Of a stretch of DNA of 64,000 bases, positions 4,771 to 62,276 are shown in pieces. Location of the stretch: positions 199,592 to 263,591 of the forward strand of contig CAWJWO010000002.1 in the NCBI GenBank assembly GCA_963846585.1. The letters are read 5' to 3'. A model generated the notes under the pieces. The model was given only the letters and a program-made list of their open reading frames with translations, did no database searches and was not told where the DNA came from. Both the position numbers and the translations under genes were made by a program. Positions within the stretch are counted from its first letter, which is position 1. The number at the start of each line of letters is the position of its first letter. Source of the stretch: an uncultured Bacteroidota bacterium. GTDB lineage: Bacteria; Bacteroidota; Bacteroidia; Bacteroidales; JAAUTT01.

Positions 4771-4777
4771 GTTCAAA

Positions 4778-5662: not shown

Positions 5663-5730
5663 ATAACCAAACAATTACCGCTCTTTCGTAACTTTAAATA
5701 CTCTGTGGCTAGGTATAATAATTTAAAAGA

Positions 5731-6765: not shown

Positions 6766-6805
6766 ATATTGAATAATTAAATAAGACAAAATATTTAAAA
6801 TTTAA

Positions 6806-8110: not shown

Positions 8111-8217
8111 TACGGGTTGATAAAATTTTGAGACAACCTGATAAGAATAAAAATTAATTCGAAGGTAACTTTCGGAAATTATTAAACATTTAACTTTACT
8201 AACTTAATTTAATTGTC

Positions 8218-8976
8218 ATGAAGAAAAAAATTATTTTATTGAGTGCTGTTGTAATTGCTTTCGTGGCTTCGGTTATTGTTATCAGTTGTAGCAAAGAATC
8301 GATGACCGCCGGAAGCAATTTGGCCTCTTGCGGGACCTGCGATTGGTACGGTACGAATTACCCTGTTTGTTGCAGCGGTATTGCACTAAGTGGCGGATGG
8401 GGATGGCAAAATAATGCCAGTTGTATTGGTCAATCAACATGTACCGGTGCAGGTCAAAGTTGTTCAGGTTGCAGTAGTTCAAGTTCAAGCTCAAGCTCAA
8501 GCTCAAGCAGTGGTGGTTCATGCCCAGGTTCATTGTCTTGTCCAAGCGGCATATCATGCGGTTGTTATACCGTTTCCGGCCTTGGTTCCACTAAACAAGG
8601 TATTGGTCAAAGCTATTGGATGTCATGCTGCATGATGGAAACCGAAGCAATGACACAATCATATACCTATGGTGATGGTAAAACAGGTAATTCGTTTAAT
8701 GCAGGCCGTGCTAAACAAAATTATGGTGAAGCTACAGCATCTGGCGTTGGCCAGGGTTCTACCGGTAATTTATGGAATTATTGTGCTTCTGTAGGTAATG
8801 ACAGAAATTGCTGGAATGCTATCTATAATCATTTTGGCAGTAATTATTGGTCATCTCATCGCGGTGGATCAGACTGGCCAACATTTAAATCTGCAAATGA
8901 CTGGACTAACAGTCAACTTAGTAACGGACACTGGACAGACAATACCCGTTTCTGGTGTAATATCCCTTCTATTTAA
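8218..8976 (+). CDS. Secreted lipoprotein: CBM10-like Cys-rich module, poly-Ser linker, and a Cys/Trp-rich ~150-aa domain of unknown function.
   Basis: Lipobox VISC. CDWYGTNYPVCC...GWGWQNNASCIGQSTC resembles the CBM10 consensus. A run of Ser follows, then a C-terminal domain containing MMETEAM and NSFNAG. Confidence 0.55.
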   Translation: MKKKIILLSAVVIAFVASVIVISCSKESMTAGSNLASCGTCDWYGTNYPVCCSGIALSGGWGWQNNASCIGQSTCTGAGQSCSGCSSSSSSSSSSSSSGGSCPGSLSCPSGISCGCYTVSGLGSTKQGIGQSYWMSCCMMETEAMTQSYTYGDGKTGNSFNAGRAKQNYGEATASGVGQGSTGNLWNYCASVGNDRNCWNAIYNHFGSNYWSSHRGGSDWPTFKSANDWTNSQLSNGHWTDNTRFWCNIPSI

Positions 8977-9003
8977 TAAAATTAATCTGAATTGATTTAA
9001 AAA

Positions 9004-9037
9004 CAGTCCCACATTTTTGCGGGACTGTTTTGTTTTT
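9004..9037 (+). terminator. Rho-independent terminator after the CBM10-like gene.
   Basis: Stem cagtcccac / gcgggactg (one mismatch), followed by ttttgttttt. Confidence 0.65.
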
Positions 9038-9088
9038 AAATAAAATTTACCTTTGAATGTGTCGTAGGATATATAAATTAAATTATGG

Positions 9089-12237: not shown

Positions 12238-14670
12238 ATGATCAATATTAAATCTATTTTAAATAAAAGTAAAGATTTAGTTATATTGATAATATTAGGG
12301 TTATTAATTTTATGTGCAATTTTCCCCAGGTTCGATTTAACTTATACCCATGGTATTGACGGATCTCTTTCGTGGGTTTTTAACCATATATATAGCAGCG
12401 GTTTTCAAATTGGCAAAAATGTAATATTCCCTCATGGGCCCCTGGCATTTTTTATGTATCCAATGCAGGAAAATTTATTGTTGGCACTATTTGTTACAAC
12501 TGTTCTTCAATTGTTACTGGTTATTAATATCTTTTATGTATTAAATGGGTTTAACCCCGGTGAACGGTGGATAATTACTACATTGGTTTCAATAATTTTG
12601 CTGAACCTGTTAAGTTTTAATTTACTTATTTTAGCCAATGTCATTTTATTATTTCTTTTATTCAACGACGACTCAAAGAAAATACATTATAAGTACCTGG
12701 CATTTTTCCTAACTGTTTTTGCATTTTATGTAAAGGCTTATGTTGCAGTAGTGTCAGGAACGATAATATTTTCTTTCCTCGTAATTTCTTTTATTGCTCA
12801 ACGCAGGATTTATAAAACCCTCCTTGATTGTTCTATTTTATTGGTATTACTCTTAATTTTTTGGGTCGCCATATATGGATCATTTACAGGTATAATTCAA
12901 TACTTTATTGGTATGTTCAATTTGACCATGTCCAATTCAGCAGCGGTTTCCTTATATCCTGATAATTATTGGATTTGCTTGTCAATCTTTCTTGTAATTA
13001 CTTTTCTGATATCCTTTCTTCAAAAATCGCCGAAAGGTTATTATTTCGGTTCTTTACTTACATTAAGCATTTTTGCCGGATGGAAACATGGTATGTCACG
13101 TGAAGATATTCATCATGCCATTGAGTTTATGGTTTATATTATCATAATTTTCTTTCTCTTTATTATTTATGTCAGGAAAAACGTCAAATACAATATTATT
13201 TTTATTTTCATCGCGGTGCTGTTATTTGGTGTTAACCTCAGGAATGTTGTTAGTTTTCAAAATTATAAAATAGAGATAATCAGCGTTAACAACCTAATGG
13301 ATTTTATCAGCAATTTTTCAAAAATCAAAGAAGATGCGAATAAAGAAATTGAGGAAAATATAAATTTTAATAAAATGCCCGATGATATTATAAGCAAAAT
13401 TGGAAAGGCTAAATTAGATATTTATCCATGGGACTATTCCATTATACCTGCAAATAAATTAAACTGGCAACCAAGGCCTCAGATTCAAAGCCATTCAAGT
13501 TTTACGCCCTGGCTTGATAAAAAAAATGCAGATCACTTTAATTCAAAATCAGCGCCTGAATTTTTAATCTGGCATTTATATACAAGCAGTCAAACCGGAA
13601 TTCAAAAAACTTTTGAAAGCATTGACGGCAGGTATCTTTTAAATGACGAACCACAAACAATTATTCAAATATTGCGTAATTATGAATTATACTATAAAAA
13701 CAGCGATTTCCTTGTATATAAAAAGAGAAATATTCCTTTGCCGGTTATACAGAAGGTTTCATTGCCAGAGCATATCACCTGGGATCAATGGATCATTGTC
13801 CCTGATTCAAACAATGACCTGATAAGGATTAAAGTAAAAATAAAAGATTCTTTTTTAGGGTATTTGAAAGACTTTTTTTATAAAGGGAATTATTATTATA
13901 TATATTATAAACTATCAAATGGTTTTATTTATAAAAACCGGGTTGCATCAAAAATAGCAACTGAAGGTATGTGGATTGATCCTTATATAACCTTGCCATC
14001 CAATAATTTTATTGAGCCTAAAGTAAAAGAAATCTTATTTAAATGTTCAAATTCGCTTCTCTCCGATGATGATATAACAATTTCATGGGAAAATATTTCA
14101 TTTGGACCAGATACCAATGTTGGGAGAAACAATTATCCAAATGCATTTTTTGGCAAAAACCTGCAACCAGCCAATAATTTGTTAAAACAAACAACCAATA
14201 ATTTTGAGTTCATGAACGAAGAATGGACAAATATAGTGCCTGAAAATATGGTCACAAATGGCTACACTGGTATATATTCATGTACATTACAAATCAATTC
14301 ATATTCAGCGGCATTTGTATTAAGCCTTGATTCGTTTCAAAATAAAGAATTATTGATTGCAACAAATTGCTGGATAAAATCAGGAACAAATGCAGACGTC
14401 TTAATTGTAATTTCGGTAGAAAATAATTCCAAAATGCAGGTAAAGAATGCATCAAACATTAAGCCACAAATAATAAATAGTAAGGAATGGAACAATGTAT
14501 CCCGTTTTCAGGAATACAAAAGCGAGAAAAAAGGGGATGTATTAAAAATATTCTTGGTTAATATAGGTCAACAACCTTTATTATATGATGATTTTACAGT
14601 AAGAATTGAACAAAGAAACCCTGTTAATCCAGGTACATTTTACAAACTTCAAAGTGAAGGAACAAAATAA
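12238..14670 (+). CDS. Large polytopic membrane protein of unknown function (N-terminal ~340-aa TM bundle plus a soluble C-terminal half).
   Basis: ORF track and hydrophobicity pattern. No family motif recognised. Confidence 0.5.
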   Translation: MINIKSILNKSKDLVILIILGLLILCAIFPRFDLTYTHGIDGSLSWVFNHIYSSGFQIGKNVIFPHGPLAFFMYPMQENLLLALFVTTVLQLLLVINIFYVLNGFNPGERWIITTLVSIILLNLLSFNLLILANVILLFLLFNDDSKKIHYKYLAFFLTVFAFYVKAYVAVVSGTIIFSFLVISFIAQRRIYKTLLDCSILLVLLLIFWVAIYGSFTGIIQYFIGMFNLTMSNSAAVSLYPDNYWICLSIFLVITFLISFLQKSPKGYYFGSLLTLSIFAGWKHGMSREDIHHAIEFMVYIIIIFFLFIIYVRKNVKYNIIFIFIAVLLFGVNLRNVVSFQNYKIEIISVNNLMDFISNFSKIKEDANKEIEENINFNKMPDDIISKIGKAKLDIYPWDYSIIPANKLNWQPRPQIQSHSSFTPWLDKKNADHFNSKSAPEFLIWHLYTSSQTGIQKTFESIDGRYLLNDEPQTIIQILRNYELYYKNSDFLVYKKRNIPLPVIQKVSLPEHITWDQWIIVPDSNNDLIRIKVKIKDSFLGYLKDFFYKGNYYYIYYKLSNGFIYKNRVASKIATEGMWIDPYITLPSNNFIEPKVKEILFKCSNSLLSDDDITISWENISFGPDTNVGRNNYPNAFFGKNLQPANNLLKQTTNNFEFMNEEWTNIVPENMVTNGYTGIYSCTLQINSYSAAFVLSLDSFQNKELLIATNCWIKSGTNADVLIVISVENNSKMQVKNASNIKPQIINSKEWNNVSRFQEYKSEKKGDVLKIFLVNIGQQPLLYDDFTVRIEQRNPVNPGTFYKLQSEGTK

Positions 14671-48726: not shown

Positions 48727-50217
48727 TTAATCTCTTGAGCTTAATTTTATCATAATTTCCCGAAAACTAGCTAATCCTGCCTCCAAGTTTTCAATGATAT
48801 CGGCAGCTATGACATCCGGATCAGGGAGATTGTCAAGATCGGCCAAGGATTTATCCTTAAGCCAGGTAATATCTAAACTGGTTTTATCACGACTGATAAT
48901 TTCTTCATAGCTGAATTTTCTCCAACGACCTTCCGGATTACTATCAGCATTAAAGGTTTCTTTACGCTGATGACGGTTTGGTGCATTATAGCAGCCGATG
49001 AAATCCTTAAGATCATCCAGCTTTAAAGGATTTTTCTTTAATGTATGATGAATATTGGTTCTGTAATCATAAATCCAAATTTCTTTTGTCCAGGGAACTT
49101 TACTTGCCGGTTTATTATCAAAAAAAATCACATTTGCTTTAACTCCCAGAGCATAAAATATTCCTGTTGGCAAACGTAAAATTGTGTGTAAGTCAGTAGT
49201 CTCTATTAGTTTTTTCCGGACTGTTTCACCCGCTCCTCCTTCAAATAATACATTATCCGGAACTACAACGGCGGCAAAACCGGTTGTTTTTAACATCGAC
49301 CGGATATGTTGAACAAAGTTTAACTGTTTGTTGCTGGTAGTAGCCCAAAAATCCTGCCTATTGTATGTTAAATCGTCTTTTTCAAGTTCTCCTTCCTCGT
49401 TGGTGAATGTCTGGCTGCTTTTTTTTCCAAAAGGCGGATTGGCCAGAACATAATCATAAGTGACGGAAGAGGCTGCAATTAAAGCATCAGCCGGAGATAT
49501 AAAATTATCGCTTTCTATGTCACCTATATTATGTAAAAAGAGGTTCATCAGTGCCAAACGTCTTGTACCGGCTACAATTTCATTGCCATAAAATGTTTTA
49601 AGTTTGATAAACTGGTTTTGTTCTTTATCCAATTTATTATTTGTAACGAGGTAATCATATGATGCCAGGAAGAAACCTCCTGTTCCACAGGCAGGATCAG
49701 CAATTGTTTTCATTGGTTGTGGCTGAACACATTCAACCATGGCACGAATTAAAGCTCTTGGTGTAAAGTATTGCCCGGCTCCGCTTTTTACGTCTTCTGC
49801 ATTTTTTTCCAACAATCCTTCATAAATATCACCCTTAACATCAGCCCCCATCACCAACCAATTTTCGCTTCCGATCATGTCGATTACCTTAGCCAACATC
49901 GCAGGGTCTTGAATTTTATTCTGGCTCTTGGTAAATATTTGTCCTAAAATACCTTTTTGAGTGCTTAACTCACGAAGTAATGTCGCATAATATAGTTCTA
50001 ATTCTGCTCCTTTTTTGGAGATCAAACTTTCCCAATTGAAAGCTTTTGGAATATTTAACTGACGGTTATATGGTGGTTTACTATATTCATCGGCCATTTT
50101 TAAAAACAATAGGTATGTGAGTTGTTCCAAATAATCCCCATAACCTACTCCAACGTCTCGGAGGGGATTACAAAATGACCAAACTTTGCTTACTATGCTG
50201 GAAGTGTTGTTGCTCAT
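48727..50217 (-). CDS. hsdM: Type I restriction-modification system, methyltransferase subunit HsdM.
   Basis: DPACGTGGF (motif I) and NPPFG (motif IV). I prefer the start at the second Met (MSNNTSSIVSKVW, 50217), which forms an ATGA overlap with the upstream gene's restored frame. The ORF track starts at 50250. Confidence 0.9.
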   Translation of the reverse strand: MSNNTSSIVSKVWSFCNPLRDVGVGYGDYLEQLTYLLFLKMADEYSKPPYNRQLNIPKAFNWESLISKKGAELELYYATLLRELSTQKGILGQIFTKSQNKIQDPAMLAKVIDMIGSENWLVMGADVKGDIYEGLLEKNAEDVKSGAGQYFTPRALIRAMVECVQPQPMKTIADPACGTGGFFLASYDYLVTNNKLDKEQNQFIKLKTFYGNEIVAGTRRLALMNLFLHNIGDIESDNFISPADALIAASSVTYDYVLANPPFGKKSSQTFTNEEGELEKDDLTYNRQDFWATTSNKQLNFVQHIRSMLKTTGFAAVVVPDNVLFEGGAGETVRKKLIETTDLHTILRLPTGIFYALGVKANVIFFDNKPASKVPWTKEIWIYDYRTNIHHTLKKNPLKLDDLKDFIGCYNAPNRHQRKETFNADSNPEGRWRKFSYEEIISRDKTSLDITWLKDKSLADLDNLPDPDVIAADIIENLEAGLASFREIMIKLSSRD

Positions 50218-51781
50218 AATTCTTCTATAATTTCCTTTTTGATTGGACAAAAGTGAATATAACCTAAAGGTATTTTTATATAATTTCTAAGATGATTGAA
50301 ATATTTAATAAATTCTTCATCTGGTTTAACATTTGAAACTAGTACAAGCTTTTCTGCATGTTTATTTTCAGGAAACAACAATATTCCAACAATTGACCAA
50401 GTGCGTTTCGCAAACTGGTAAGAAGTTGATTATATGTTTTGATCTCATAAAATACATAACCGTTTGACGTTTCCCTTACAATATCAATTTTGTTGTAGCC
50501 CCATGCCCTACATTCTCTCTTTACTTTTTTCTTTCCATACTGTTTTTGTAGATAACAAAGAAATTTTTCTTCAATATCATTATGACTTAAGTCAACTTCG
50601 ATTTCTTTTTTAATCGAACGCTTAATAGACTCTTTCTTAAGATTACCTTCTGTGGTACCAGTTTCATCAAATGAAAAATATTTTTTAGTTTCAGTTAAAA
50701 TCTCTTCAATTTGAGAAGTATCTTCCAGATTTAGTAGAACATACCTAGAGGATGAAATTAATCCATTTCCTTTATCAATTGGGATTATTTCATCAGGTAA
50801 GTAATTTATTTCTTCTATTTTAAATCGAATATTAAACAAAGGATTATTTTGAACCCATTCATTTAAAAAGTTTCTACCCTTATCTGAGACGGAGAGTAAA
50901 TCAACTACCATTTCCTCTAACCAGCCATTATTCTTATAAATACCAAGAACTCTTTCAGCTGTTTCTTCATTGATGACTTCTACATTATTTAATGTACCAA
51001 CCCAATATTGTTGTTTTTTATTATCATCTATTGTATATAAGCTTATATTAAAATTCTTACCAATATAACTATCATAAAATTTATATATTGGTTCCAGAAA
51101 ACCATATTTATAACCATCTATCGACTTTGAACTATCAAATAACCATTCCTCATGACCATAACCATAAGTATGCTCGAAACTTTCATTTTTAGATTTTCCA
51201 TCTCTCCCTGATGGTTTTATCCAACCTTTAGAATTCCATGTAATTCTTGAAATTTTATGTTCTATATTTAAACTTGGATTATTGATGCAATCATTTAAAG
51301 CTTGAATAGCTTCTGGTTGTTTAGATTCCAATAATTGAAGCACTTTAAATAATCCAAAACTATAATTATCAATATTCGTAAATGTGGCCGGATTATTATG
51401 TGTTTCTAAATCATGTTGAAAGGGTTTATCTAGTTTATGAATATATTTAACCTTAATTGCGGGATAATCTTTATTATCAAGCTTAATATATGGGCCTTTG
51501 AAATTATATTCTGTTAATGCTATGGCTATACCATAGTAATTAAATTTATCAAGGACAAATATTAAATCTCCTTTCCTTAATTTAGTGACCCAAGGAATAA
51601 TAGAATTTTTACCACTATCTATCTCATTTATATTCTTAGTATAATTAATTTCTGAATTTAACCATAAGAAACTTAGCAAGTTAGTATTTTTAAGAATTTG
51701 CCACTTCGAGGAGTCTGCGCAACGCCAGATATTATGGAATTGTGTTCTAATTTTTTCTTCAAGAATATGAATAGTATTCAT
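50214..51781 (-). pseudogene. R-M-embedded gene Y: unknown N-terminal domains plus a C-terminal PD-(D/E)xK nuclease-like motif. Frameshifted near 50371-50380.
   Basis: The ORF track gives 50339-51781 (480 aa). The KIDIV...VFYEIK...QLLEY pattern is PD-(D/E)xK-like. After a -1 shift the frame continues FPENKHAEKLVLVSNVKPDEEFIKYFNHLRNYIKIPLGYIHFCPIKKEIIEEL*, ending in an ATGA overlap with hsdM. Confidence 0.55.
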
Positions 51782-51793
51782 AAATAAAAACTT

Positions 51794-53032
51794 TCAAATA
51801 AGTTTCCCCTCAAAAGCCTTCTTCAATATACTCTTTCTCAATGATTCTACCTGATCCAAACTTTGGCTTATGGTTTCTTCTATTTTGTCGCAAACAGTGA
51901 GTTTGCTTTCAAGTTCTGAGACAATGAGTCGTTGTTCATCAAGAGAACAATAAGGAAACTCAATTTGCTTAATTCTTTCTTGACCTATATTTCTCATTGA
52001 TTCCTGATTTCCAGTTGACAATCTCTGAATTTCTTTCCTTCCTTTTCTACTTCTTAAATAGGATAGAATATAAGGATTTAAAACAACAGATTTAAATTTA
52101 AATCTCAGTGTTTTATCACTAAGCATTAATTGTCTTTGAATATTACTAACAATAACAACTGCACCAATTAAATCAAGCGTATTTGCTCTACTAAAAAGGA
52201 AATCATCTTTTACCACCAAGTATGCTTTATTAAATCTTTCTTTGTCAAATATAGTTTTGCTTTCATTTTCATTGAAAACTTGCCAAGTAACTGCACTAAC
52301 TTTAAGTACTCCAACTTCATTTAAATTCGGTGTCCTTTCATCACACTTAAAACTTTTTCCAGCTTCTATTTTATCTAGTACGTCTCCTAAACATTTTATA
52401 GACCACTCTTTTGGCATCTCACCATCCTTCACCTCTTTATTGGTAAGCTTTCCTTCAAAGGCCGCCTTTAATAAACTTTGCCGGTAAACCTTTAATTGCT
52501 GCTGAGCGGTTATCAGTTTTTGTTTGCCGTTATCTAAATCGCTGAGTAGTTCTTCTATTTTGGAAACAATGGCTTGCTGTTCGGGGAGTGGAGGAATAAT
52601 AAAAGGTATATCAACTAAGTTGCTTTTTGTTAATTTCAAACGAGTCGTACCATTTACAAATTCTCTATAATTAATAGAATTAAGATAATAAAGAGCAAAA
52701 TCATCTGAAAGATATTGTGCTTTTCCTTTCAGAATATGGGCATGATTGTTTACCCAGGTTTTACCTTTAATTTTATATGCTTTATTTTTATAATTATCCA
52801 AAAATGGAGCACCGTCTTCTCCAATTAATAAATATTCGCCATTAGTTAAATAGCAATCTATCCAACCTACTTGACCAGTAGCTCCATAGTAAGGGAAAAG
52901 TTCACTTTGACTTTTCCCAGCAATTCTTTGTTGCCGTTCTATTAAATTTACTGGCTTTCGTAAATTATCCAGAATTTCACAAACTGCTCCAAGTTTCATA
53001 ATTTGCCAATGTTTTGGAATACTATTCTTCAT
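51794..53032 (-). CDS. hsdS: Type I R-M specificity subunit HsdS (two target-recognition domains).
   Basis: Duplicated conserved spacer regions (LPEQQAIVSKIEELLSDLD... and LDEQRLIVSELESKL...KKAFEGKLI), typical of HsdS. Confidence 0.85.
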   Translation of the reverse strand: MKNSIPKHWQIMKLGAVCEILDNLRKPVNLIERQQRIAGKSQSELFPYYGATGQVGWIDCYLTNGEYLLIGEDGAPFLDNYKNKAYKIKGKTWVNNHAHILKGKAQYLSDDFALYYLNSINYREFVNGTTRLKLTKSNLVDIPFIIPPLPEQQAIVSKIEELLSDLDNGKQKLITAQQQLKVYRQSLLKAAFEGKLTNKEVKDGEMPKEWSIKCLGDVLDKIEAGKSFKCDERTPNLNEVGVLKVSAVTWQVFNENESKTIFDKERFNKAYLVVKDDFLFSRANTLDLIGAVVIVSNIQRQLMLSDKTLRFKFKSVVLNPYILSYLRSRKGRKEIQRLSTGNQESMRNIGQERIKQIEFPYCSLDEQRLIVSELESKLTVCDKIEETISQSLDQVESLRKSILKKAFEGKLI

Positions 53033-55355
53033 TCTTTTCTCTTAAGTTCTCTGGAATAATTAAATGTTCAATAAATTTACTTTTGTTTGTTTGATAGAAC
53101 TTTGAGACAAAAATTGGAATGAAAATTGCTTGATAAATTGTTAATAACAATAATATTCCTTTTAATACAGGGTTTGCCAAAAAAGTATCAAGATTTTTTC
53201 CGTCTGGATTATTTGGGAATATTGATAATTCGTTTAGAATTAAATAAGTAGAAAGAAACATTACAGGAAGAAAAAGAATCCAAATAAATGATCTAAAACG
53301 CCACCAAAATATTTTCCTATATATGTATTTAGCTCTTGGTATTTTCCTTTGTTCATTTTTCAAAGCAATATTTTCCTTACTTTTATTAAGTAATTTTAAT
53401 ATTGTGGCATCTAATTTTCTTTGTATTTCAGCAGTTTCAAAATTTAGAGTAGGTGAAATTATTGTTGTTGTAGTTCTATATTCCAGTGTTTTTATTTGTT
53501 TTTGAAGTTGATTTATTGCAGAATTTAGTAAAATTACATCAGTTTCTTTTTGTTCATTTTGCGTTTTAAGTCTTTCTTTATCTTCTTTTTCAAATCTAGT
53601 TTGTTCTGTTAATTTTTCTAATTCCTCTTTAGTTACTCTAACTTCATTTTCCTTTTGAGCTAAAATAGTATTTAGTTCTGATTCAAAAAATTGTTCGCTA
53701 TTAAATTCTTGTTTAGAATTTTCTTGGTGAAAATTCTCCATGAAAAGTTTTTCTGAAATTAAATTCAATAAAACACTTTCATTGTCAATTCCATGTTTTT
53801 TTAAATAGCTTGCAACTTTAATTATATCATTTGATTTTTGCGTATCTTTATGAAAACCCCTGGATGACACTGCTTTAATAAAGGCTTTTTTATAATCAGG
53901 AGTTTTAATTGGTAAAAGTTTTACCAATCTATTTAATAAAAAAGATGGACGGAAAAAAGTTGGGTAATTAGTAATCTCTTGTGAATTAATTTTTTGATTA
54001 TCATATTTTAATAATAATCCATCTAACGTTAATCCAAAATATTTAACTTCATTAAATGTTTTAATTTCATCTTTATTGAATGATCTTCTTGAGTTTAAAA
54101 TTAACTCTCTTAATACTATATCATGATTAATTTGTGAATCCGAACGAAAATGAGGTCTGAAGAAAGTGTGATTTTTTTTTGAAAATTCTAATCGAGTCTC
54201 ATTAATACAATCTATATAGCGTTTATATTCTACTATTTTTTCATTTATGTAATTATCTCCTAAGGAGTCAATTTGTTTTTTATTTCTAGAAATTAAAATG
54301 CCTGCTTTTGGTAAAGTTATTTCAGCTAAATCAATAATTTTAGTAGGATGAATTGTTTCTGCTCTATTAAATAATAAATCTGAATAATATTTTTTTGCAA
54401 ATTCATCTAATTCATCTGATTTTAATATAGCTCTTATTGCAGAATCAGTTAGTGTTTCGTCCAAGTTGATAAAATCGATCTTCTTATGTCTTAATTCTTT
54501 TAAAGTAAGTTCCGAATACCGAAATTGAATTTTAATAATATCCTTATTAAGTACAATAAGCTTGATAAGTTCTTTAGATGCCTCATTTTCAACATTTGCA
54601 TGAAGGTTAAGAATTGAGAAAAGAAAATTTGTATCTAAATAAAGTGTCCAATCAATTAATTCTTTATCTAAATCTTGACTAGCTTGTTCAGGACTGAGAC
54701 CTAATGAAGCAAATGAAAGAGTCTTTTGACCAATATCATCAATGAAATCTAAATCTTCTTTTGTAGCATAATCAGGAAATAAATCAACTGCAATTTTGAA
54801 TATTTCTGTTAAGTTCGGGTTTTTTAATTTAATTATTGCATCATTAAATACTTCTCTGTAATTTAAATTAGCAGATTCCTGCCTAACATTTTTTGGATGT
54901 AAAAATTCAATAGCATTTATTCCATAAAGGAAAAAACAGCCATAAAAATAATCTTTGAGAGTATCCCAAAGTAACTTAATGTCATCATCTTTAAGTATAC
55001 TTTGAGATTTTTCATTAATAAAATTTTTAAAGTTCTGAAATCTAATTATTTCACTTGTTCTAAGTTTTGCACCAAGAGAAATTAACTTTTCTTTTTCATC
55101 ATCTACTAATGAATATTGTGATTTAATATTTTGAACAATTTCATTACCATCAAGAAGTGTTTTAAAAATAGTGTCGAACTCTGTATCATATAAGGATATA
55201 TCATAAATAATATCAATATTTTCTTTTAATTCACTAATTGAAATGGGATCTTTACTTTCTAAAAGAGTCGTTCTTATAATAGATTTAATGCTATCTTCTC
55301 GAGTTTCTGAAGCAGACAAACTAAGTGTAGTTAATATTTTAGTTACATTTTTCAT
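53022..55355 (-). CDS. R-M-embedded gene X: 777-aa protein with a PIN-like motif, a long coiled coil and two C-terminal TM helices.
   Basis: WTLYLDTNFLFSIL (aa ~236-249; D241 at ~54633-54635). Coiled-coil-like segment at aa ~575-645 (EELEKLTEQTRFEKEDKERLKTQNEQKE...). Hydrophobic helices FIWILFLPVMFLSTYLIL and ILLLLTIYQAIFIPIFV. Overlaps the hsdS start by 11 nt. Confidence 0.6.
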   Translation of the reverse strand: MKNVTKILTTLSLSASETREDSIKSIIRTTLLESKDPISISELKENIDIIYDISLYDTEFDTIFKTLLDGNEIVQNIKSQYSLVDDEKEKLISLGAKLRTSEIIRFQNFKNFINEKSQSILKDDDIKLLWDTLKDYFYGCFFLYGINAIEFLHPKNVRQESANLNYREVFNDAIIKLKNPNLTEIFKIAVDLFPDYATKEDLDFIDDIGQKTLSFASLGLSPEQASQDLDKELIDWTLYLDTNFLFSILNLHANVENEASKELIKLIVLNKDIIKIQFRYSELTLKELRHKKIDFINLDETLTDSAIRAILKSDELDEFAKKYYSDLLFNRAETIHPTKIIDLAEITLPKAGILISRNKKQIDSLGDNYINEKIVEYKRYIDCINETRLEFSKKNHTFFRPHFRSDSQINHDIVLRELILNSRRSFNKDEIKTFNEVKYFGLTLDGLLLKYDNQKINSQEITNYPTFFRPSFLLNRLVKLLPIKTPDYKKAFIKAVSSRGFHKDTQKSNDIIKVASYLKKHGIDNESVLLNLISEKLFMENFHQENSKQEFNSEQFFESELNTILAQKENEVRVTKEELEKLTEQTRFEKEDKERLKTQNEQKETDVILLNSAINQLQKQIKTLEYRTTTTIISPTLNFETAEIQRKLDATILKLLNKSKENIALKNEQRKIPRAKYIYRKIFWWRFRSFIWILFLPVMFLSTYLILNELSIFPNNPDGKNLDTFLANPVLKGILLLLTIYQAIFIPIFVSKFYQTNKSKFIEHLIIPENLREKNEE

Positions 55356-55376: not shown

Positions 55377-58220
55377 TTATGCTGATAAAGCTTCATTTAA
55401 TTCGCTTATAATATATTCTGTCTGTTCTCCAAATAATTCCCACATCCTACCAATTCCGCCTTTTGCATTAAAAGGATTTAAATCAAAATCGTCCTTTTCA
55501 ATATGGAAACTGTTTAAAATATAATCTTTAATCATTCGTAACCATTGTATTTGTTCTTCTGAAAATTTTGGAGCATTACCTGCTTGTTTATTAAAAACCC
55601 ATGTCTGGAAATTTTTATCGACTGTTTTATCATAAGATGTGATGATGTTATCTATCCCACATCCTTTACGAATAAGAGAGACAATAGCGGTTAATTCATT
55701 TATTGGTGAGCCATTGCATTTTTCCAAGGTTTCATGAGCTCGCCAAACATTCATTGGTGCCAAAAGGGGTTTATCTTGTTGAAGTTTCTCCAAAACCGCT
55801 TTTATCATGACATAAGTGAGTTCCCTCCTTCGGAATGGTTCATTATAAAAAATCTGCAATGCCATCAATTTATCTTTATTTTGAGATATCCATTCAGCAA
55901 AACTTTTTACTATTTCATATGCCTTGTCTTTATTATCCTTTGCCCAGCCAACATTGATGATTTCATCAGGATTAGAAGAATCGATTTTCTGTTCGTGGGC
56001 CTTCCGCACATTTTCAATATATTCATTAAGTTCACCATTGAACACCTTGGCAGCTTCTTCTATTAATTTAGAATTTCTGATTTTGAATTCTTTATCGATA
56101 TCAATAGGTGCTGACCCCAGCATCTCTCTGTTAACTTGCATTTTTAAATCTTCAACCACATCAGGATTAAAAGCCTTTAACAATTCTTTTACAACCTGTG
56201 AAATGCTTTTACCATTTGCTTTTTCTGCAAATTTGACTTTTTCTTTCTCAGTTATTTGCTTGTCAAATCGTGACAGCCGGTTAGCAAGTGAGGTGAACAA
56301 ATCTTCATCTCGTACACCTACGGCAATGGCCTGAAGTAAATCTTTCAACGGAACCCCTGGCTTTTTTTCCAATGGTCTGCTGTCAGTTTTCAAGCTTCTG
56401 GTAACTCCAATGGCATCTACAATTACAAAATGATCTTTGGTGTATTTCGCAGTAGGAGTGACTTTACGCAAATTATCCAGATCAATTGTTCGTGTACCCC
56501 GACCCTTCATCTGTTCGAAATAATTTTTACTTTTAACATCACGCATAAACAACAAGCATTCCAATGGTTTAACATCAGTACCAGTGGCAATCATATCGAC
56601 TGTCACTGCAATGCGTGGATAATATGAATTGCGAAAGTCGGACAAAGTACCTTTCGGGTTTTCTCCCTTTTCTATAATATTGTCATAAGAATCTCTGCGG
56701 TCTTTTTCTGAATTATAAGTAATTTTTTTACAAAAACGGTTTTCTTCAGCAAATTCTTCTCTTACAATTTGAATAATATCATCAGCATGACTGTCAGTCT
56801 TTGCAAAAATTAAAGTTTTAGGTATTTCAAAAACTCCATTTAGGTCAAATCTGTCATTAAAAATAATCGGAAGATGTTCTTTAAAAGTTCTTATAATAAT
56901 CCTTATTTGATTGGGGTTTACAACATTTTTATCCAGTTGTTGGCTGGAATAATTTTCATCTTCATCCTGCAACTCCATGCGCTTTTTACGGCTCAACCTT
57001 TCACGCAGTTCAACATATTCACCCTGCCAAAAAGTACCTCCTTGTTGTGTAATTTTTGTATCGATAATATATACGTCATAGCCCACATTTACACCATCTG
57101 CAACTGCCATTTCATGTGAATATTCCGATACAACATTTTGCTGAAAATAAGCAAAAGTTCTGGCATCGGGTGTTGCAGTTAGTCCAATTTCAAAGGCATC
57201 GTAATATTCTAATACCTGAGTCCACAAGTTATAAATGCTTCGGTGACATTCATCAATTACAATGAAATCGAAAAACTCTATTGGCATTTTCGAATCATAT
57301 TCTATTGGAGGGATTTCCTTAGGTTGCCACTTATGTTCGTTTGGGTTTTCTTCTTCAAGTTTTTCATCCAACTCCGTTCCTTTTAAAATGGAATAAAGCC
57401 GTTGTATTGTACTGATGCAAACTTGACTATCAGTTGCAATATAACTTGACTTTAATCGCTGGACATTATATAATTCGGTGAATTTTCTATTATCGTCATT
57501 TGGTAAATAAGACATAAATTCCTGTTCAGCTTGTTCCCCCAGATTTTTAGTATCTACTAAAAAAAGTACCCGTTTAGCTTTAGAATATTTGAGTAAACGA
57601 TAAATAAAGGTAATTGCTGTAAAAGTTTTTCCAGCACCTGTAGCCATTTGAATTAATGCCTTAGGGTGGTATTGTTTAAAAGAAGTTTCTAAATTTTGAA
57701 TGGCGTTGATTTGACAATCCCTTAATCCTTCAGTTTGCAGGGCTGGTAAATCGAACAATCTTTTGCGAAGGGATTTTCCTGTTTTCTTCCAGTCTCTTAA
57801 GGTTTCTGGTTGATGGAAACTGAATATTTCCCTTGATCGTGGTTTTGGATCGGTATAGTCGGTAAATCTTGTTATTTCCCCTGTACTAAGATAAACATAT
57901 TGTAAAGGTTCATTATTTAAATATTTAAGTTTAGCATGAGCATATTCTTCACTTTGACTTTCGTGAACATTCATGCGATGACCTTCTTCTTCTCTTTTAG
58001 CTTCAACTATGCCTATTGGTTTACTTTCAACAAATAAAATATAATCGGCTGGGCCAACATCCGTATAATATTCTTTTACAGCTACACCAATACCTGCAAG
58101 AAGATTTACCTTTTTTACTTCCTGAATTATCCAGCCAGCAGTTATAAGCTGTCTGTCAATATGATCTCTGGCGACTTGTTCCGGATTCTGGTTAATCATG
58201 GCCTCTATTGGTAATATCAA
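55377..58220 (-). CDS. hsdR: Type I R-M restriction subunit HsdR (helicase/nuclease).
   Basis: N-terminal HsdR-type region (DHIDRQLITAGW), Walker A QMATGAGKT, DECH box. The likely true start is ATG at 58199 (MINQNPEQ). Confidence 0.9.
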   Translation of the reverse strand: MILPIEAMINQNPEQVARDHIDRQLITAGWIIQEVKKVNLLAGIGVAVKEYYTDVGPADYILFVESKPIGIVEAKREEEGHRMNVHESQSEEYAHAKLKYLNNEPLQYVYLSTGEITRFTDYTDPKPRSREIFSFHQPETLRDWKKTGKSLRKRLFDLPALQTEGLRDCQINAIQNLETSFKQYHPKALIQMATGAGKTFTAITFIYRLLKYSKAKRVLFLVDTKNLGEQAEQEFMSYLPNDDNRKFTELYNVQRLKSSYIATDSQVCISTIQRLYSILKGTELDEKLEEENPNEHKWQPKEIPPIEYDSKMPIEFFDFIVIDECHRSIYNLWTQVLEYYDAFEIGLTATPDARTFAYFQQNVVSEYSHEMAVADGVNVGYDVYIIDTKITQQGGTFWQGEYVELRERLSRKKRMELQDEDENYSSQQLDKNVVNPNQIRIIIRTFKEHLPIIFNDRFDLNGVFEIPKTLIFAKTDSHADDIIQIVREEFAEENRFCKKITYNSEKDRRDSYDNIIEKGENPKGTLSDFRNSYYPRIAVTVDMIATGTDVKPLECLLFMRDVKSKNYFEQMKGRGTRTIDLDNLRKVTPTAKYTKDHFVIVDAIGVTRSLKTDSRPLEKKPGVPLKDLLQAIAVGVRDEDLFTSLANRLSRFDKQITEKEKVKFAEKANGKSISQVVKELLKAFNPDVVEDLKMQVNREMLGSAPIDIDKEFKIRNSKLIEEAAKVFNGELNEYIENVRKAHEQKIDSSNPDEIINVGWAKDNKDKAYEIVKSFAEWISQNKDKLMALQIFYNEPFRRRELTYVMIKAVLEKLQQDKPLLAPMNVWRAHETLEKCNGSPINELTAIVSLIRKGCGIDNIITSYDKTVDKNFQTWVFNKQAGNAPKFSEEQIQWLRMIKDYILNSFHIEKDDFDLNPFNAKGGIGRMWELFGEQTEYIISELNEALSA

Positions 58221-58750: not shown

Positions 58751-59567
58751 TTAAATATGTTTCAATTGGTATTTAAAGCCTGGTAACCTGGATAGTGACT
58801 CAGCTAAATGTTTCCTGTGACATTGATTTATATTTGCCTCAAAACATGTTAATGCGATTCGTTTTTTATCTTTTAATAATACTAACAATTTTTCCTGTAT
58901 ACTCAATGTTTGTTGTAAAACATCGACATGATATGATTTAAACAAATTGTCATAATCAATTTGAGTATATAATTCTTGCCGTTTGTCAGAGTCAATCCCA
59001 AATTCCGGAATATGTAAATATTTAATATTAACACCTTCACAAGCTTTTTGTAATTGTGATTTACTAAATCCATATTTCATGCTAACAAGAGTTTTTACGT
59101 ACATCACAAAGAACTTTAATATTGTTTTTAATAAGTTTATTTAAGTATTCTTCTAAGGACGTACCCTCGTAACCAATAGTATATAAACCAGTATCATTAT
59201 ATTTTGGCTGTGCTTCCAATATTCTTTGATATTCATCCTGGTTAAGTATATCTTTAGCTATAGTGCTATTGATAGCCAAATAAGGGAAATTTATATAAGT
59301 GTATTTTATTAACTCATCAGTATTTTTACTTCCAAATTGTAACTTAATATATCGAATAGCTTGCATGGCCCTTTCTTTAAGACTTGATAAGAAATTTGCA
59401 TGATCTATTTTTACCCAGCTATTACCATCAACTGCAACTTGATTATATTTAGTCATTGTAGTTAAATCAGCATTTGCCTGGAAAGAAAAACAACCAAACT
59501 TATAAGGAATAAAATAATAATCAGGGTTAAGCTGTTGATTAACAGTTAACATTAATAGTTTTTGCAA
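58751..59567 (-). pseudogene. DUF488-family protein with an extra N-terminal domain, split by a frameshift in a homopolymer.
   Basis: LYTIGYEGTSLEEYLNKLIKNNIKVLCDVRKNS (end of the 161-aa ORF) plus SMKYGFSKSQL...LTCFEANINQCHRKHL (118-aa ORF) form one DUF488 pattern. The frames join at the T5 run 59092-59096. Confidence 0.6.
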
Positions 59568-59632: not shown

Positions 59633-59933
59633 ACATATTACAAAAATATGAAATTGTGCGGATATTTTAATAGTTATTTATATTAGTTAATTGATTAATA
59701 ATCGCCTTAGTAACGCAATCCTTTATACTTATATTAGAATCCAACGATTTTAGTTTAATCTTTTTCATTAACGATTTTGGAATCCAAACATTCAATTGAA
59801 CTTCTGCTTCCATATTCCCTACCGGGAATATACGGCGATCCCGTTTTGGAGGTGCTAAAATCGAAAAGCAACCTGACGGTTTTTGTCTTTTCAATCGTCG
59901 CTTATGAAAGTAAACTTTCATCGCTTGATTTAA
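59633..59933. repeat. 301-bp direct repeat, copy A (downstream flank of the group II intron). Contains an intact 84-aa ORF.
   Basis: Identical to 61848-62148 except for one mismatch (59927 g vs 62142 t). Confidence 0.9.
59667..59921 (-). CDS. Small putative ribbon-helix-helix protein (copy A).
   Basis: The segment VQLNVWIPKSLMKKIKLKSLDSNISIKDCVTKAIINQL fits a beta-strand/helix/helix RHH pattern. The internal Met (MEAEVQ) may be the true start. Confidence 0.35.
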   Translation of the reverse strand: MKVYFHKRRLKRQKPSGCFSILAPPKRDRRIFPVGNMEAEVQLNVWIPKSLMKKIKLKSLDSNISIKDCVTKAIINQLTNINNY

Positions 59934-61847
59934 TCGAGTAGGAGAAACGGGATTAATTCCCGTTTCGACCTCTCACACCACCGTACGTACCGTTCGGTAT
60001 ACGGCGGTTTCTTAATTTACACAGTGTACTTTCACGTAATAGGCAGAGAAGAAAATAAATCCTGTACTCAAAAGCCTTTCAGTAGTTATGCTTCTATGCA
60101 GTATAGGACTATCGGCAGTATGCCAGTATCCTTTCCTTGTATTGGCAAACACAAAGGCTTTAGGTCTGGGAATACCAAGTTTAATCAGGTTGCTAATTTT
60201 GGTTCTGGTACGTTTCCATTGTTTCCATATCAGTGCCCTTAATCGTCGCCTAAACCATTCATCAATACGTAATAGAAGAATTTTCATGTCTGCAAGTTTG
60301 AAGTAGTTCAACCATCCTGTGATGTACTGTTTAAGTGCTTCTTTCCTGCGTTCATTTCCCCACCCGTTACTTCTTGATGTTAGTTCCCTGATTTTCCCTT
60401 TCATTTTCTCCACACTCTTTTGGTGAATGCGGATATGGCAACTATCTTTGGTAAAGTAAAACCCATACCCTAAGAATTTAACGTCTTTAATATGGGCTAC
60501 TACCGTTTTATCGCGATTTACTTTTAGGTACAATTTTTCTTCTATGTATTTTGTGATTCCAGAGAGTATCCTTTGGGATGCTCGTCTGCTTCTGCAAAAT
60601 ATCATACAATCATCGGCGTACCTTACAAACCTGTGCCCCCGCTTTTCCAGTTCCTTATCCAGTTCGTTGAGCATTATGTTGCTCAATAACGGACTTAGGT
60701 TGCCTCCCTGCGGTACTCCCATTGGTGTATCTTTATATACACCTTGTGTCATTACACCTGCTCTAAGGTATTTATGTATTAGCGATACAACTCTGCCATC
60801 TTTTATTGTTCTGGAAAGAACTTCTATAAGTTTACTTTGATTAACTTTATCAAAGAACTTTTCCAAATCCATATCCACTACATACCGATAGCCTTCGTTA
60901 GCATTCTTCTGACATTGCCTTATAGCTTGATGGGCACTGCGCTTTGGTCGGAATCCGTAACTGGTAGCTGAGAATTGTCTTTCGTAAATCGGCGACATTT
61001 GTTGTGCCACTGCTTGCTGGATTACTCTGTCTGCTACCGTGGGGATGCCCAGTTGCCGTTTATTCCCGTTCTCCTTTGGTATTTCTACCCTTCTGACCGG
61101 TTGTGGCATGTACTTCCCCTCGTGTAAAGCTGTTATTAATCCCTCTCTATGGGTTTGAAGGTGTTTTAATAAGTCCTCCATTTGCATCCCATCAACTCCT
61201 CCACTCCCCTTATTCCGCCTTACTTGTTTGTAAGCTTCATTTAGGTTGGTTGGAGATAGAATAAACTCTAACAGCCTTGGCCGTGCTGTGTTGGTGTCTT
61301 CTTTTTCATTCATCCATAAGAATGTCTGCCCTTCAACATCTCCTTCGAGTACCGCTCTATCTATCCGTTGACAGGTGTCATTATCCGTTTTCTGCTTTCC
61401 ATCATTCATAAGGTAAATTTCATTTGATGCTCACCTCTTAAGATTCGGCCCTTCGTTCTTTTGTGAGTCTTCCTCTTTTCTATATCGGCTCGTTACCTTT
61501 AACTACTATGGCCTCTGCTGACTCCTGACAGTAATTGTTATCCGTGTTTCATACTCCGTTTCCGCACGTCTGTCAGGTCTCCCTTGGTAAACTTATTCCC
61601 CTTCATCCCATGTAACCGCTACATTTACACTCCAGTATCCGGGTAGTTATTGGACTTCAATTTGTTTTGCAATCTCGTCCTACTGGATATGCCTGATGTA
61701 GTTCGTATTCCTCGGTTCAGGACTTTGCCTCCAGCTTCCTTCAGATTCCACTTCGCAATGGACACCCTTGCTCTTGGCTAATGGTTGGTAACTACCGACC
61801 CCCATAAAGGACTCTCACCTTCAAGGTAATAGGTGCGCAAGGCGCAC
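59934..61847 (-). mobile_element. Group II intron (~1.9 kb, no endonuclease domain in the IEP; possibly bacterial class C-like).
   Basis: The 5' end is GTGCGCC on the minus strand at 61847. Domain V-like GCCGTATACCGAACGGTACGTACGG lies at ~59980-60010. A domain VI-like hairpin with a bulged A (..CTCCTACTCGAT) ends at ~59934. Contains an RT/maturase ORF. Confidence 0.8.
60012..61409 (-). CDS. Group II intron reverse transcriptase/maturase.
   Basis: RT motifs RRVEIPKENGNKRQLGIPTVADRVIQ, YVVDMDLEKFFD, GVPQGGNLSPLLSN and VRYADDCMIF, plus an X/maturase region. No HNH domain at the C-terminus. Confidence 0.9.
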   Translation of the reverse strand: MNDGKQKTDNDTCQRIDRAVLEGDVEGQTFLWMNEKEDTNTARPRLLEFILSPTNLNEAYKQVRRNKGSGGVDGMQMEDLLKHLQTHREGLITALHEGKYMPQPVRRVEIPKENGNKRQLGIPTVADRVIQQAVAQQMSPIYERQFSATSYGFRPKRSAHQAIRQCQKNANEGYRYVVDMDLEKFFDKVNQSKLIEVLSRTIKDGRVVSLIHKYLRAGVMTQGVYKDTPMGVPQGGNLSPLLSNIMLNELDKELEKRGHRFVRYADDCMIFCRSRRASQRILSGITKYIEEKLYLKVNRDKTVVAHIKDVKFLGYGFYFTKDSCHIRIHQKSVEKMKGKIRELTSRSNGWGNERRKEALKQYITGWLNYFKLADMKILLLRIDEWFRRRLRALIWKQWKRTRTKISNLIKLGIPRPKAFVFANTRKGYWHTADSPILHRSITTERLLSTGFIFFSAYYVKVHCVN

Positions 61848-62176: not shown

Positions 62177-62188
62177 TTTTTCGATTTG

Positions 62189-62276
62189 CGGAGAGTTAGG
62201 GATTCGAACCCTAGAAGCCCTTTTGAAGCTTACACACTTTCCAGGCGTGCGCCTTAGACCACTCGGCCAACTCTCC
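62189..62276 (-). tRNA. tRNA-Ser (anticodon GGA), class II with a long variable arm.
   Basis: Manual fold of GGAGAGTTGGCCGAGTGGTCTAAGGCGCACGCCTGGAAAGTGTGTAAGCTTCAAAAGGGCTTCTAGGGTTCGAATCCCTAACTCTCCG. It has a 7-bp acceptor stem, anticodon stem CACGC/GTGTG, loop CTGGAAA, T-arm TAGGG-TTCGAAT-CCCTA and discriminator G. No encoded CCA. Confidence 0.9.

Follow-up and report, generated by a model that had tools for sequence, protein, structure and literature searches.

The window analysed here is a 64,000-nucleotide stretch of a contig from an uncultured Bacteroidota bacterium (CAWJWO010000002.1), and it carries a Type I restriction operon of five tightly packed minus-strand genes: hsdR, a gene that we call X, hsdS, a gene that we call Y, and hsdM (Table 1). 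Gene X is the subject of this analysis. Its position between hsdR and hsdS, pointed out in an original prediction made from the DNA letters, was borne out by the open reading frame (ORF) coordinates and by the Pfam matches of the neighbouring genes. X begins 21 nucleotides past the stop codon of hsdR, and at its other end its stop codon runs into the start of hsdS with an overlap of 11 nucleotides; its start codon is credible because homologues align from residue 1, and the opposite strand holds no ORF of at least 80 residues. A scan of the operon showed promoter-like sites at no more than chance level, together with ten terminator-like sites versus 3.7 expected, all of them weak and all within coding sequence. 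In base composition X is the outlier of the operon, with the lowest GC content (25.1%, and 13.4% at third codon positions, GC3) compared to 32–37% (GC3 22–32%) in the hsd genes and a window mean of 32.8%, which would fit X having a different origin from the hsd genes.

Domain layout of gene X

Our analysis supports an architecture in which a PIN-like head is followed by a stalk of helices and, at the C-terminus, by two helices that anchor the protein in the membrane, as had been proposed in the original prediction. Taken as a whole, that first interpretation was partly supported; absent from it were the N-terminal winged helix, the acidic residues D412 and D445, the large multi-phylum family and the recurrent position between hsdS and hsdR, all of which are described below. 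The full-length AlphaFold2 (AF2) model, based on a 35-sequence alignment, has a mean predicted local distance difference test score (pLDDT) of 75.8, and a model of residues 228–505 alone, in which strands and helices alternate, reached a pLDDT of 85.4 and a predicted template modelling score (pTM) of 0.82.

At the N-terminus, residues 16–83 are suggestive of a winged helix. Foldseek searches with the full model matched this region to PadR/LmrR proteins (7qz5_B, probability 0.94, TMt 0.56; 8jxk, probability 0.84; all with E > 0.1), and profile matches to the eIF3a PCI domain (E 0.007), to H5/Z-alpha (E 0.0099) and to F93 (E 0.16) were obtained, none of these matches being significant. The all-helical linker that follows contains the conserved residues G145, F215, L218 and G219; both this region (residues 85–227) and residues 508–545 are helical and have no family match. 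In the PIN-like domain, strands are modelled at residues 234–240, 274–281, 353–356 and 439–442, with a short bridge near 467–468.

A coiled coil had originally been placed at about residues 575–645; a charged helix with heptads is indeed present there, but its limits move to residues 553–625. In one register, 57% of the a and d positions of this segment are hydrophobic compared to 17% elsewhere, its 3.5-residue periodicity has a p value of 0.0135 against shuffled sequences, and its compositional matches are to coiled-coil chains and families. After a low-confidence (disordered) break at residues 626–639, AF2 models a second helix spanning residues 640–709, which runs into the first membrane segment. 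Since residues 640–685 carry no heptad signal, the coiled coil is better placed at 553–625.

Kyte-Doolittle hydropathy, calculated in 19-residue windows with a threshold of at least 1.6, confirmed the two C-terminal hydrophobic helices of the original prediction, as windows above the threshold are confined to residues 687–712 and 728–754; a 23-residue charged tail follows the second segment. The net charge before the first predicted transmembrane (TM) helix is positive in 75% of family members, with a family mean of +1.5. Read with the positive-inside rule, the basic stretch before this helix would place the large N-terminal part in the cytoplasm and leave a hairpin with both termini inside (N-in/C-in), a topology with which hydropathy, AF2 helices and charge counts are all consistent.

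Table 1. Gene X, its predicted parts and candidate catalytic residues, and other features of the locus (positions are those of the window).
Feature	Position	Strand	Remarks
Gene X	53022-55355	minus	777 aa; complete ORF, ATG to TAG
Probable winged helix-turn-helix, aa 16-83	55107-55310	minus	helix-helix-helix-strand-strand; AF2 pLDDT 84-89
All-helical linker, aa 85-227	54675-55103	minus	AF2 helices 85-116, 123-152, 160-177, 180-191, 199-218
PIN-like alpha/beta domain, aa 232-500	53856-54662	minus	large helical inserts
D241, first candidate catalytic acid	54633-54635	minus	GAT; C-terminal end of strand 1, DTN motif; invariant (83/83)
E287, second candidate catalytic acid	54495-54497	minus	GAA; helix after strand 2, T..EL motif; at least 90% conserved
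D412, third candidate acid	54120-54122	minus	GAT; H411-D412 pair, start of helix preceding strand 4
D445, fourth candidate acid	54021-54023	minus	GAT; T-L-D motif directly after strand 4; at least 90% conserved
D452, further conserved acid	54000-54002	minus	at least 90% conserved
Coiled-coil stalk helix, aa 553-625	53481-53699	minus	AF2 single helix, charged, heptad periodicity
Second helix, aa 640-686	53298-53438	minus	ends strongly basic: 7 K/R versus 1 D/E in aa 667-686
Hydrophobic segment 1, aa 687-712	53220-53297	minus	predicted TM helix 1; hydropathy peak 2.15
Hydrophobic segment 2, aa 728-754	53094-53174	minus	predicted TM helix 2; hydropathy peak 2.16; AF2 helix 729-753
hsdR	55377-58220	minus	947 aa; Pfam ResIII 4e-40, EcoEI_R_C 2e-36, HSDR_N 4e-6
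hsdS	51794-53032	minus	412 aa; Pfam Methylase_S 2e-27, two stretches
Gene Y	50339-51781	minus	480 aa; unannotated
hsdM	48727-50250	minus	507 aa; Pfam N6_Mtase 3e-67, HsdM_N 2e-10; last gene of the operon
Group II intron reverse transcriptase/maturase ORF	60012-61409	minus	
Group II intron Rfam D1-D4 elements	61448-61762	minus	
tRNA-Ser(GGA)	62188-62276	minus	next after the group II intron

The central domain and its probable PIN-like fold

Several weak signals agree in supporting a PIN-like fold for the central domain, none of which reaches a curated cut-off. X itself has no PIN match in Pfam, and we found no hidden Markov model (HMM) match to the PIN clan (CL0280) at or above the gathering score; across the family and its consensus sequences the best PIN-clan scores are 17–21 bits versus cut-offs of 23.6 to 32, the family maxima being 20.8 bits for PIN_12 (cut-off 32) and 19.7 bits for PIN (cut-off 23.6). 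The sub-threshold Pfam matches, to PF01850 (PIN), PF16289 (PIN_12) and PF13470 (PIN_3), set profile position 1 or 2 on the DTN strand. PF01850 is matched in this way by seven of 21 close members (best E 0.0015), while 62 distant members yielded four matches to PF01850, three to PIN_12 and two to PIN_3 (best E 1.2e-4); a PIN_12 match of the same sub-threshold kind occurs in member P0253. PF01850 is also the top Pfam match of all three family consensus sequences, at E values of 0.009–0.09.

Profile-to-profile alignment with hhalign against a VapC profile gave a P value of 2.3e-3 when the whole family was used and one of 5.1e-4 with the distant clade alone. The alignment pairs the aspartate of DTN (D241) with VapC D7 and the glutamate of T..EL (E287) with VapC E42, so both acidic motifs singled out in the original prediction fall on the first two canonical PIN positions. 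All controls, comprising reversal, the N-terminal and stalk regions, and 20 column permutations, returned P values of at least 0.17, which suggests a modest similarity to VapC that is specific to the central domain. The hhalign probabilities are themselves modest (12–31%) and may understate or misstate the relationship. The VapC profile, grown from a seed that matches PDB 3TND chain A exactly, shows little diversity, its members sharing at least 73% identity, and convincing alignment is confined to the N-terminal half.

Both motifs were found where they had been predicted, the DTN motif within WTLYLDTNFLFSIL at residues 236–249 and SELTLKEL at residues 281–288, and they do not occur by chance, because they are conserved across a sample of 83 members that are 16–40% identical to X. 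All 83 carry D241, D412 and P470 without exception, and G145, L218, T242, N243, L249, T284, E287, L348, H411, R423, D445, D452 and F492 are conserved in at least 90%. PIN domains are expected to have three to four conserved acids, with canonical positions at the end of strand 1, in the helix after strand 2, in the helix before strand 4 and after strand 4, and D241, E287, D412 and D445 would supply them: D412 is the probable equivalent of VapC D98, judged from the order of secondary-structure elements rather than from superposition, and predicted secondary structure puts D445 at a canonical PIN position. The canonical PIN motif after strand 4 is T-x-D, which the T-L-D of D445 resembles. The PIN-like core is broken up by helical inserts that total about 120 residues, and the long inserts after strands 2 and 3 agree with the published description of DUF4935-type PIN domains (PMC5499597).

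Structural comparison of the domain model with the Protein Data Bank (PDB) using Foldseek returned, at probabilities of about 0.4 or more, mostly VapC1, VapC2, VapC4, VapC20, the PIN domains of SMG6/EST1A and Rrp44, and HARP/PRORP. These PIN-like matches have probabilities of 0.4–0.8 and TMt values of 0.4–0.53, with 1v96, 1y82 and Exo1 lower down, and they form the majority of the matches above a probability of 0.5. The top match among the viral models of BFVD is a 366-residue phage protein labelled 'PIN like domain' (E 1e-3, probability 1.00, 304 columns), which is the sole BFVD match above 0.5; next come XRN, poxvirus G5R, XPG and flap endonucleases (FEN), most of the first ten matches being PIN-like. 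The PIN assignment of the original prediction therefore stands in part, as PIN profile matches recur but remain below curated cut-offs, and the Foldseek lists are mostly PIN-like but contain no PDB match at E ≤ 1e-3.

Family and genomic neighbourhood

A word-indexed search retrieved 120 relatives of X, nearly all of 760–785 residues, which are unnamed or 'hypothetical' and lack precomputed Pfam domains, and an exhaustive HMMER scan at E ≤ 1e-3 retrieved 371 representatives of clusters at 50% identity. X thus belongs to an unnamed family of proteins of about 720–790 residues, whose full-length members span 70% to about 17% identity to X, the closest (70%) being encoded in a Prolixibacter metagenome-assembled genome (MAG). 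A separate genome scan, which was seeded on two peptide patterns and can miss members, found 45 loci in 185,579 species-representative genomes. Relatives occur there in many Bacteroidota, and others with 22–27% identity in Nitrospirales, Binatia, Steroidobacteraceae, Acidobacteriota, Accumulibacter, a Desulfotruncus isolate and a Methanosarcinaceae MAG; the distant clade at this level of identity (L035–L045) also includes Prevotellaceae. The distant ORFs share the plan of X: they have about 710–775 residues, their DTN motif falls near residue 240, and their C-terminus contains one to three hydrophobic segments.

At least one C-terminal hydrophobic segment is present in 79 of the 83 sampled members and at least two in 73, and such segments are also found in the homologues from other phyla and from one archaeal MAG. 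The segments are kept as a feature while their sequence is not conserved, making them the least conserved part of the protein. Their number ranges from zero to four across the family. Most proteins of the distant clade have three, which would place the C-terminus outside the cell.

We searched 41 non-redundant loci with the Hsd proteins of the window and of other loci, and found the X homologue between hsdS and hsdR in 18 of them. Two layouts occur. In the first, the order is R-X-S-(gene)-M with an EcoEI-type HsdR (the window, L009, L018 and L022); in the second, it is M-S-(cargo)-X-R-YgjP with a different type of HsdR. Five distant homologues from other phyla (L037, L040–L043) share the position between hsdS and hsdR, which is thus occupied by proteins only 22–27% identical to X in Nitrospirales, Binatia and Steroidobacteraceae. 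Other copies of the family lie in a CTnDOT-like conjugative element, in prophage-like regions, in a patch of nucleotidyltransferase and Uma2 genes resembling toxin–antitoxin (TA) modules, and in ordinary chromosomal surroundings. Apart from hsd genes, no gene recurs next to X in the 41 loci, and no antitoxin candidate is adjacent to it; on this evidence X is a self-contained cassette of one gene that strongly prefers the hsdS–hsdR junction.

In related genomes, defence cargo stacks up at this junction. In L003 it holds SMODS and SLATT genes (8078–9948) resembling a cyclic-oligonucleotide-based anti-phage signalling system (CBASS), with the SLATT protein, so classed by its precomputed family annotation, beside the X homologue; in L004 it holds SAVED, SMODS and a PLD-family gene (4442–8685); and in L006 and L007 a TIR protein and a Piwi-domain protein resembling short Argonautes (4543–9773). 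Four loci (L003 at 12359–13822, L014, L017 and L019) carry a gene for a 487-residue protein between the X homologue and hsdR, with an N-terminus that, judged from its sequence, is a putative DNA-binding region of AlbA_2/Schlafen type, no Pfam match being on record. Defence genes embedded at the same junction have been described before, among them PrrC, the R-linked ORFs of C. jejuni, TgvAB and candidates put forward by 'guilt by embedding' (PMC11411939; 10.1101/2024.01.29.577857), and PIN-like genes coupled to Type I subunits were reported by Matelska et al.

In the window itself, gene Y was considered as a partner of X and rejected, as tblastn found no Y homologue in any X locus. Y has no match in Pfam, PADLOC, PHROGs or the PDB; residues 402–454 give a faint NCBIfam match to PRK14677 (a 'hypothetical protein' equivalog, E 0.073), and by eye its C-terminus, KIDIVRETSNGYVFYEIKTYN, looks like the D...E-x-K motif of PD-(D/E)xK nucleases. 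The program-called ORFs of hsdR and hsdM open at TTG, 7 and 11 codons before the first ATG (at 58199–58220 and 50218–50250, minus strand), and their true starts are probably the internal methionines, MINQNPEQ... and MSNNTSS..., respectively. A few hundred bases upstream of hsdR lies a DUF488 gene (58751–59107, minus strand, E 2e-15), with two small unannotated ORFs beyond it (59082–59567 and 59667–59921), and a group II intron (60012–61762, minus strand) is found about 1.8 kb upstream of hsdR. Given the nearby intron and tRNA-Ser(GGA), the restriction operon lies in a variable region, a typical island site.

Proposed function and comparison with known systems

We lean, with some reserve, towards reading X as an autonomous membrane-anchored PIN-like nuclease that serves as a single-gene defence module. 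In this reading, X would be a mobile cassette lodged at the hsdS–hsdR junction and co-transcribed with the Type I operon. The bulk of the protein, residues 1–686, would lie on the cytoplasmic side, with the C-terminal two-helix hairpin tethering it to the inner membrane and both ends inside the cell. The N-terminal winged-helix and helical module might bind nucleic acid or the trigger, or restrain the enzyme, and the PIN-like domain, with D241, E287, D412 and D445, would be the catalytic cutter; the coiled-coil stalk would probably mediate oligomerisation or space the head from the membrane. The tether could keep the nuclease from the bulk of cellular nucleic acid and position it at the entry site of foreign nucleic acid or at the source of a phage-induced signal. 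Upon infection, X might then cut the invading nucleic acid in the manner of SNIPE, or cut host or phage RNA with an abortive outcome. The analysis shows the architecture, the conservation, the recurrent place in the genome and the lack of a partner gene, whereas we infer the nuclease activity, substrate, topology, trigger and defence role set out here, a role most likely directed against phages or plasmids.

Among the mechanisms compatible with the data, abortive infection is one of several. PIN-like domains of the VapC group are mostly RNases, which makes an abortive RNase mechanism equally possible and the SNIPE-like cutting of DNA speculative. Single-protein PIN defence that works without an antitoxin has been validated for DS-3 (PMC13092281).

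A number of results, in addition to the RNase activity usual in the VapC group, weigh against the favoured reading. No model of Pfam, NCBIfam, PADLOC or PHROGs matches X at threshold, and every E value of the domain model in Foldseek searches of the PDB is 0.18 or higher. Profile HMMs of the family (A1, A3) and of the domain (A2) searched against PDB sequences gave compositional matches to coiled-coil and membrane proteins or none. 'Mini-PIN' constructs of ten members, from which the inserts had been deleted, stayed below the Pfam cut-offs, with best scores of 20.8 bits for PIN_12 and 19.7 bits for PIN, and six of the ten had no PIN-clan match. The TM and coiled-coil calls are based on hydropathy, periodicity and AF2. 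Finally, at least 23 of the 41 loci are without an hsd gene within 10 kb, so that over half of the family loci lie away from restriction–modification (R-M) systems, and a role of any member in phage defence is putative.

A bolder extension, which we hold tentatively and consider rather doubtful, is that X represents a novel class of single-protein immune nucleases spanning several phyla, in which a membrane-held PIN-like enzyme is functionally wired to Type I restriction. Such an enzyme may cut at the entry point, as a second, independently evolved SNIPE-like solution, or it may fire once the co-encoded restriction complex has been neutralised, as a membrane-bound counterpart of PrrC. Under either version, persistence of the hsdS-X-hsdR arrangement at 22–27% identity would reflect a functional partnership and not a shared hotspot.

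Of the alternatives to our preferred reading, the one that survives best, though we judge it unlikely, is a PrrC-like guard, in which X binds the complex of HsdM, HsdS and HsdR and stays latent until a phage factor such as Ocr, ArdA or a Stp-like protein disables restriction, whereupon it becomes a suicidal RNase. The position between hsdS and hsdR in 18 of the 41 loci, in two operon orders, with two types of HsdR and with homologues of 22–27% identity in other phyla, is what such a guard would lead one to expect, as are the 11-nucleotide overlap with hsdS and the start 21 nucleotides past hsdR. The gene prrC occupies the same position and is described as almost exclusively embedded in Type I systems (Payne et al., 10.1101/2024.01.29.577857), and VapC-type PIN domains typically cleave tRNA or rRNA (PMC13092281). 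However, among the loci without hsd genes (at least 23 of 41 within 10 kb) are a conjugative transposon, prophage-like regions and ordinary chromosomal sites that hold intact copies of full length, and a cytoplasmic Type I enzyme gives a membrane anchor no obvious reason. Unrelated cargo (CBASS, TIR with Piwi, the AlbA_2-like gene) at the same junction points instead to a general insertion hotspot.

Less likely again is a mis-assigned fold, a reading that could coexist with any of the other alternatives, in which the domain has another Rossmann-like three-layer fold and its conserved aspartate, glutamate and histidine residues bind a nucleotide or other ligand. All the PIN evidence lies below curated thresholds, the top PDB match in Foldseek is a cyclodipeptide synthase with a class-I tRNA-synthetase-like fold (E 0.18), and the top matches of the full-length model are O-methyltransferases. 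The alternative matches, however, have TM-scores of 0.09–0.31 and root-mean-square deviations (rmsd) of 10–28 Å, and strand 1 is not followed by a glycine-rich loop for S-adenosylmethionine (SAM) or nucleotide binding, its sequence being DTNFLFS. PIN-like proteins moreover make up the majority of PDB matches above a probability of 0.5 as well as the top match and most of the first ten in BFVD, and the VapC profile signal is specific to this region. We rejected an O-methyltransferase identity, for which TM-scores are 0.09–0.19 and rmsd values exceed 20 Å, also because the glycine-rich loop is missing; these matches probably reflect a generic arrangement of a winged helix and a Rossmann-like domain.

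It is improbable that the membrane hairpin does the killing, with coiled-coil oligomers perforating or depolarising the inner membrane in the manner of SLATT proteins or the two-TM (2TM) effectors of CBASS and retrons, and with the head acting as a nucleic-acid sensor. Effectors that disrupt membranes are frequent in abortive infection, the family as a whole keeps hydrophobic segments at the C-terminus, the long stalk suits oligomerisation, and in L003 a SLATT protein adjoins the X homologue. The membrane segments are nevertheless the least conserved part and variable in number, which fits an anchor better than a specific pore, whereas conservation is highest at the acidic residues of the PIN-like domain, which argues for catalysis, and X matches neither SLATT nor other effector TM families in Pfam or PADLOC.

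A function outside defence, be it as a housekeeping or regulatory membrane protein (YacL-like RNA processing, or a winged-helix regulator of the operon) or as an addiction toxin of mobile elements, is equally improbable: membrane-bound PIN.COG4956 proteins of unknown, non-defence function do exist (PMC5499597), the winged helix could bind an operator and several copies of X reside in mobile elements, but the family is patchily distributed (the 45 loci of the pattern-seeded scan, which can miss members), X has a GC3 below that of neighbouring genes, the gene keeps company with restriction, CBASS and prokaryotic Argonaute (pAgo) systems and has no adjacent antitoxin candidate across loci, and a 777-residue membrane protein would make an odd operon regulator.

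The ingredients of our preferred reading, a membrane-anchored defence nuclease, are known: PIN nucleases act in defence, cargo is embedded in Type I operons and defence nucleases can be membrane-bound. The combination of winged helix, PIN-like domain, coiled coil and C-terminal hairpin in one widespread family lies outside the libraries searched. Should X be a defence nuclease, the immune repertoire would gain an unannotated family, with about 371 clusters at 50% identity, for which Pfam, NCBIfam and PADLOC hold no model, and X would provide a second case, with a different fold and the opposite domain order, of the recently shown ability of a membrane tether to separate self from non-self. As its position between hsdS and hsdR recurs in distant lineages, X lends itself to asking whether embedded cargo has no more than a hotspot in common or works together with the restriction enzyme, a question for which the four conserved acids and the removable anchor offer clear mutants. 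Hundreds of comparable embedded candidates exist, which makes X a good experimental candidate rather than a surprise; what raises it above their average is its spread over several phyla, together with an architecture that is conserved and a position beside hsdR and hsdS that persists.

As the original prediction had anticipated, no named system fits X: the search, which took in defence databases released up to 2023, found no family at E ≤ 1 in PADLOC-DB v2.0.0, whose coverage includes candidate systems besides known ones, and X has no match to the SLATT models of Pfam and PADLOC. YacL-type proteins (PIN.COG4956) likewise combine a PIN domain with TM helices in one polypeptide, having four N-terminal TM helices, PIN and TRAM (PMC5499597), but they are broadly conserved and housekeeping-like, whereas in X the hairpin is C-terminal and is accompanied by a winged helix and a coiled coil, and its distribution is patchy and island-associated. 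With Shigella VapC (PDB 3TND), X shares the paired DTN (D7) and T..EL (E42) motifs, a fitting order of elements and further acids at the expected places; VapC, however, has about 130 residues, compared to a 777-residue multidomain membrane protein with about 120 residues of inserts. In place of a VapBC module, X has hsdR and hsdS as neighbours, and no small VapB-like partner recurs across the 41 loci.

PrrC, RloC and the R-linked ORFs resemble X in their position between hsdS and hsdR and, if the effector role drawn here by analogy holds, in being latent RNase-type effectors without an antitoxin gene. X differs from them in its membrane anchor and in that roughly half of the family is found elsewhere than in R-M operons, and Pfam, NCBIfam and PADLOC show no ABC-type ATPase, anticodon-nuclease or PrrC match in X, so that position alone is shared. 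DUF4935 proteins (PIN_12, PF16289), large PIN proteins of the VapC structural group in which a long helical insert follows strand 2 and extra helices follow strand 3, are similar in this PIN core, as predicted for X, in being usually monocistronic and in having an unknown function (PMC5499597), and the best weak Pfam matches of the X family are to PIN, PIN_12 and PIN_3. X, however, is twice as long (DUF4935 proteins have about 350 residues), its family remains below the gathering threshold of PIN_12 (at most 20.8 versus 32 bits), and it adds the winged-helix and helical module, the coiled coil and the membrane hairpin.

SNIPE is a nuclease of the PD-lambda type, bound to the membrane, that combines DUF4041 with GIY-YIG, and experiments showed that its tethering averts self-damage and that phage DNA is cut during injection (bioRxiv 10.1101/2025.11.03.685801). 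X and SNIPE are each a single elongated protein in which a nuclease or nuclease-like domain is combined with a membrane anchor, a spacer of helices and a putative DNA-binding module, and in both the anchor is poorly conserved and the nuclease domain well conserved. They differ in that X is PIN-like with a C-terminal hairpin, while SNIPE is GIY-YIG with a single N-terminal pass, the domain order being reversed, and neither DUF4041 nor GIY-YIG is found in X by Pfam at E ≤ 1. By this comparison, X is an analogue of SNIPE and not a homologue, and it may work on the same principle.

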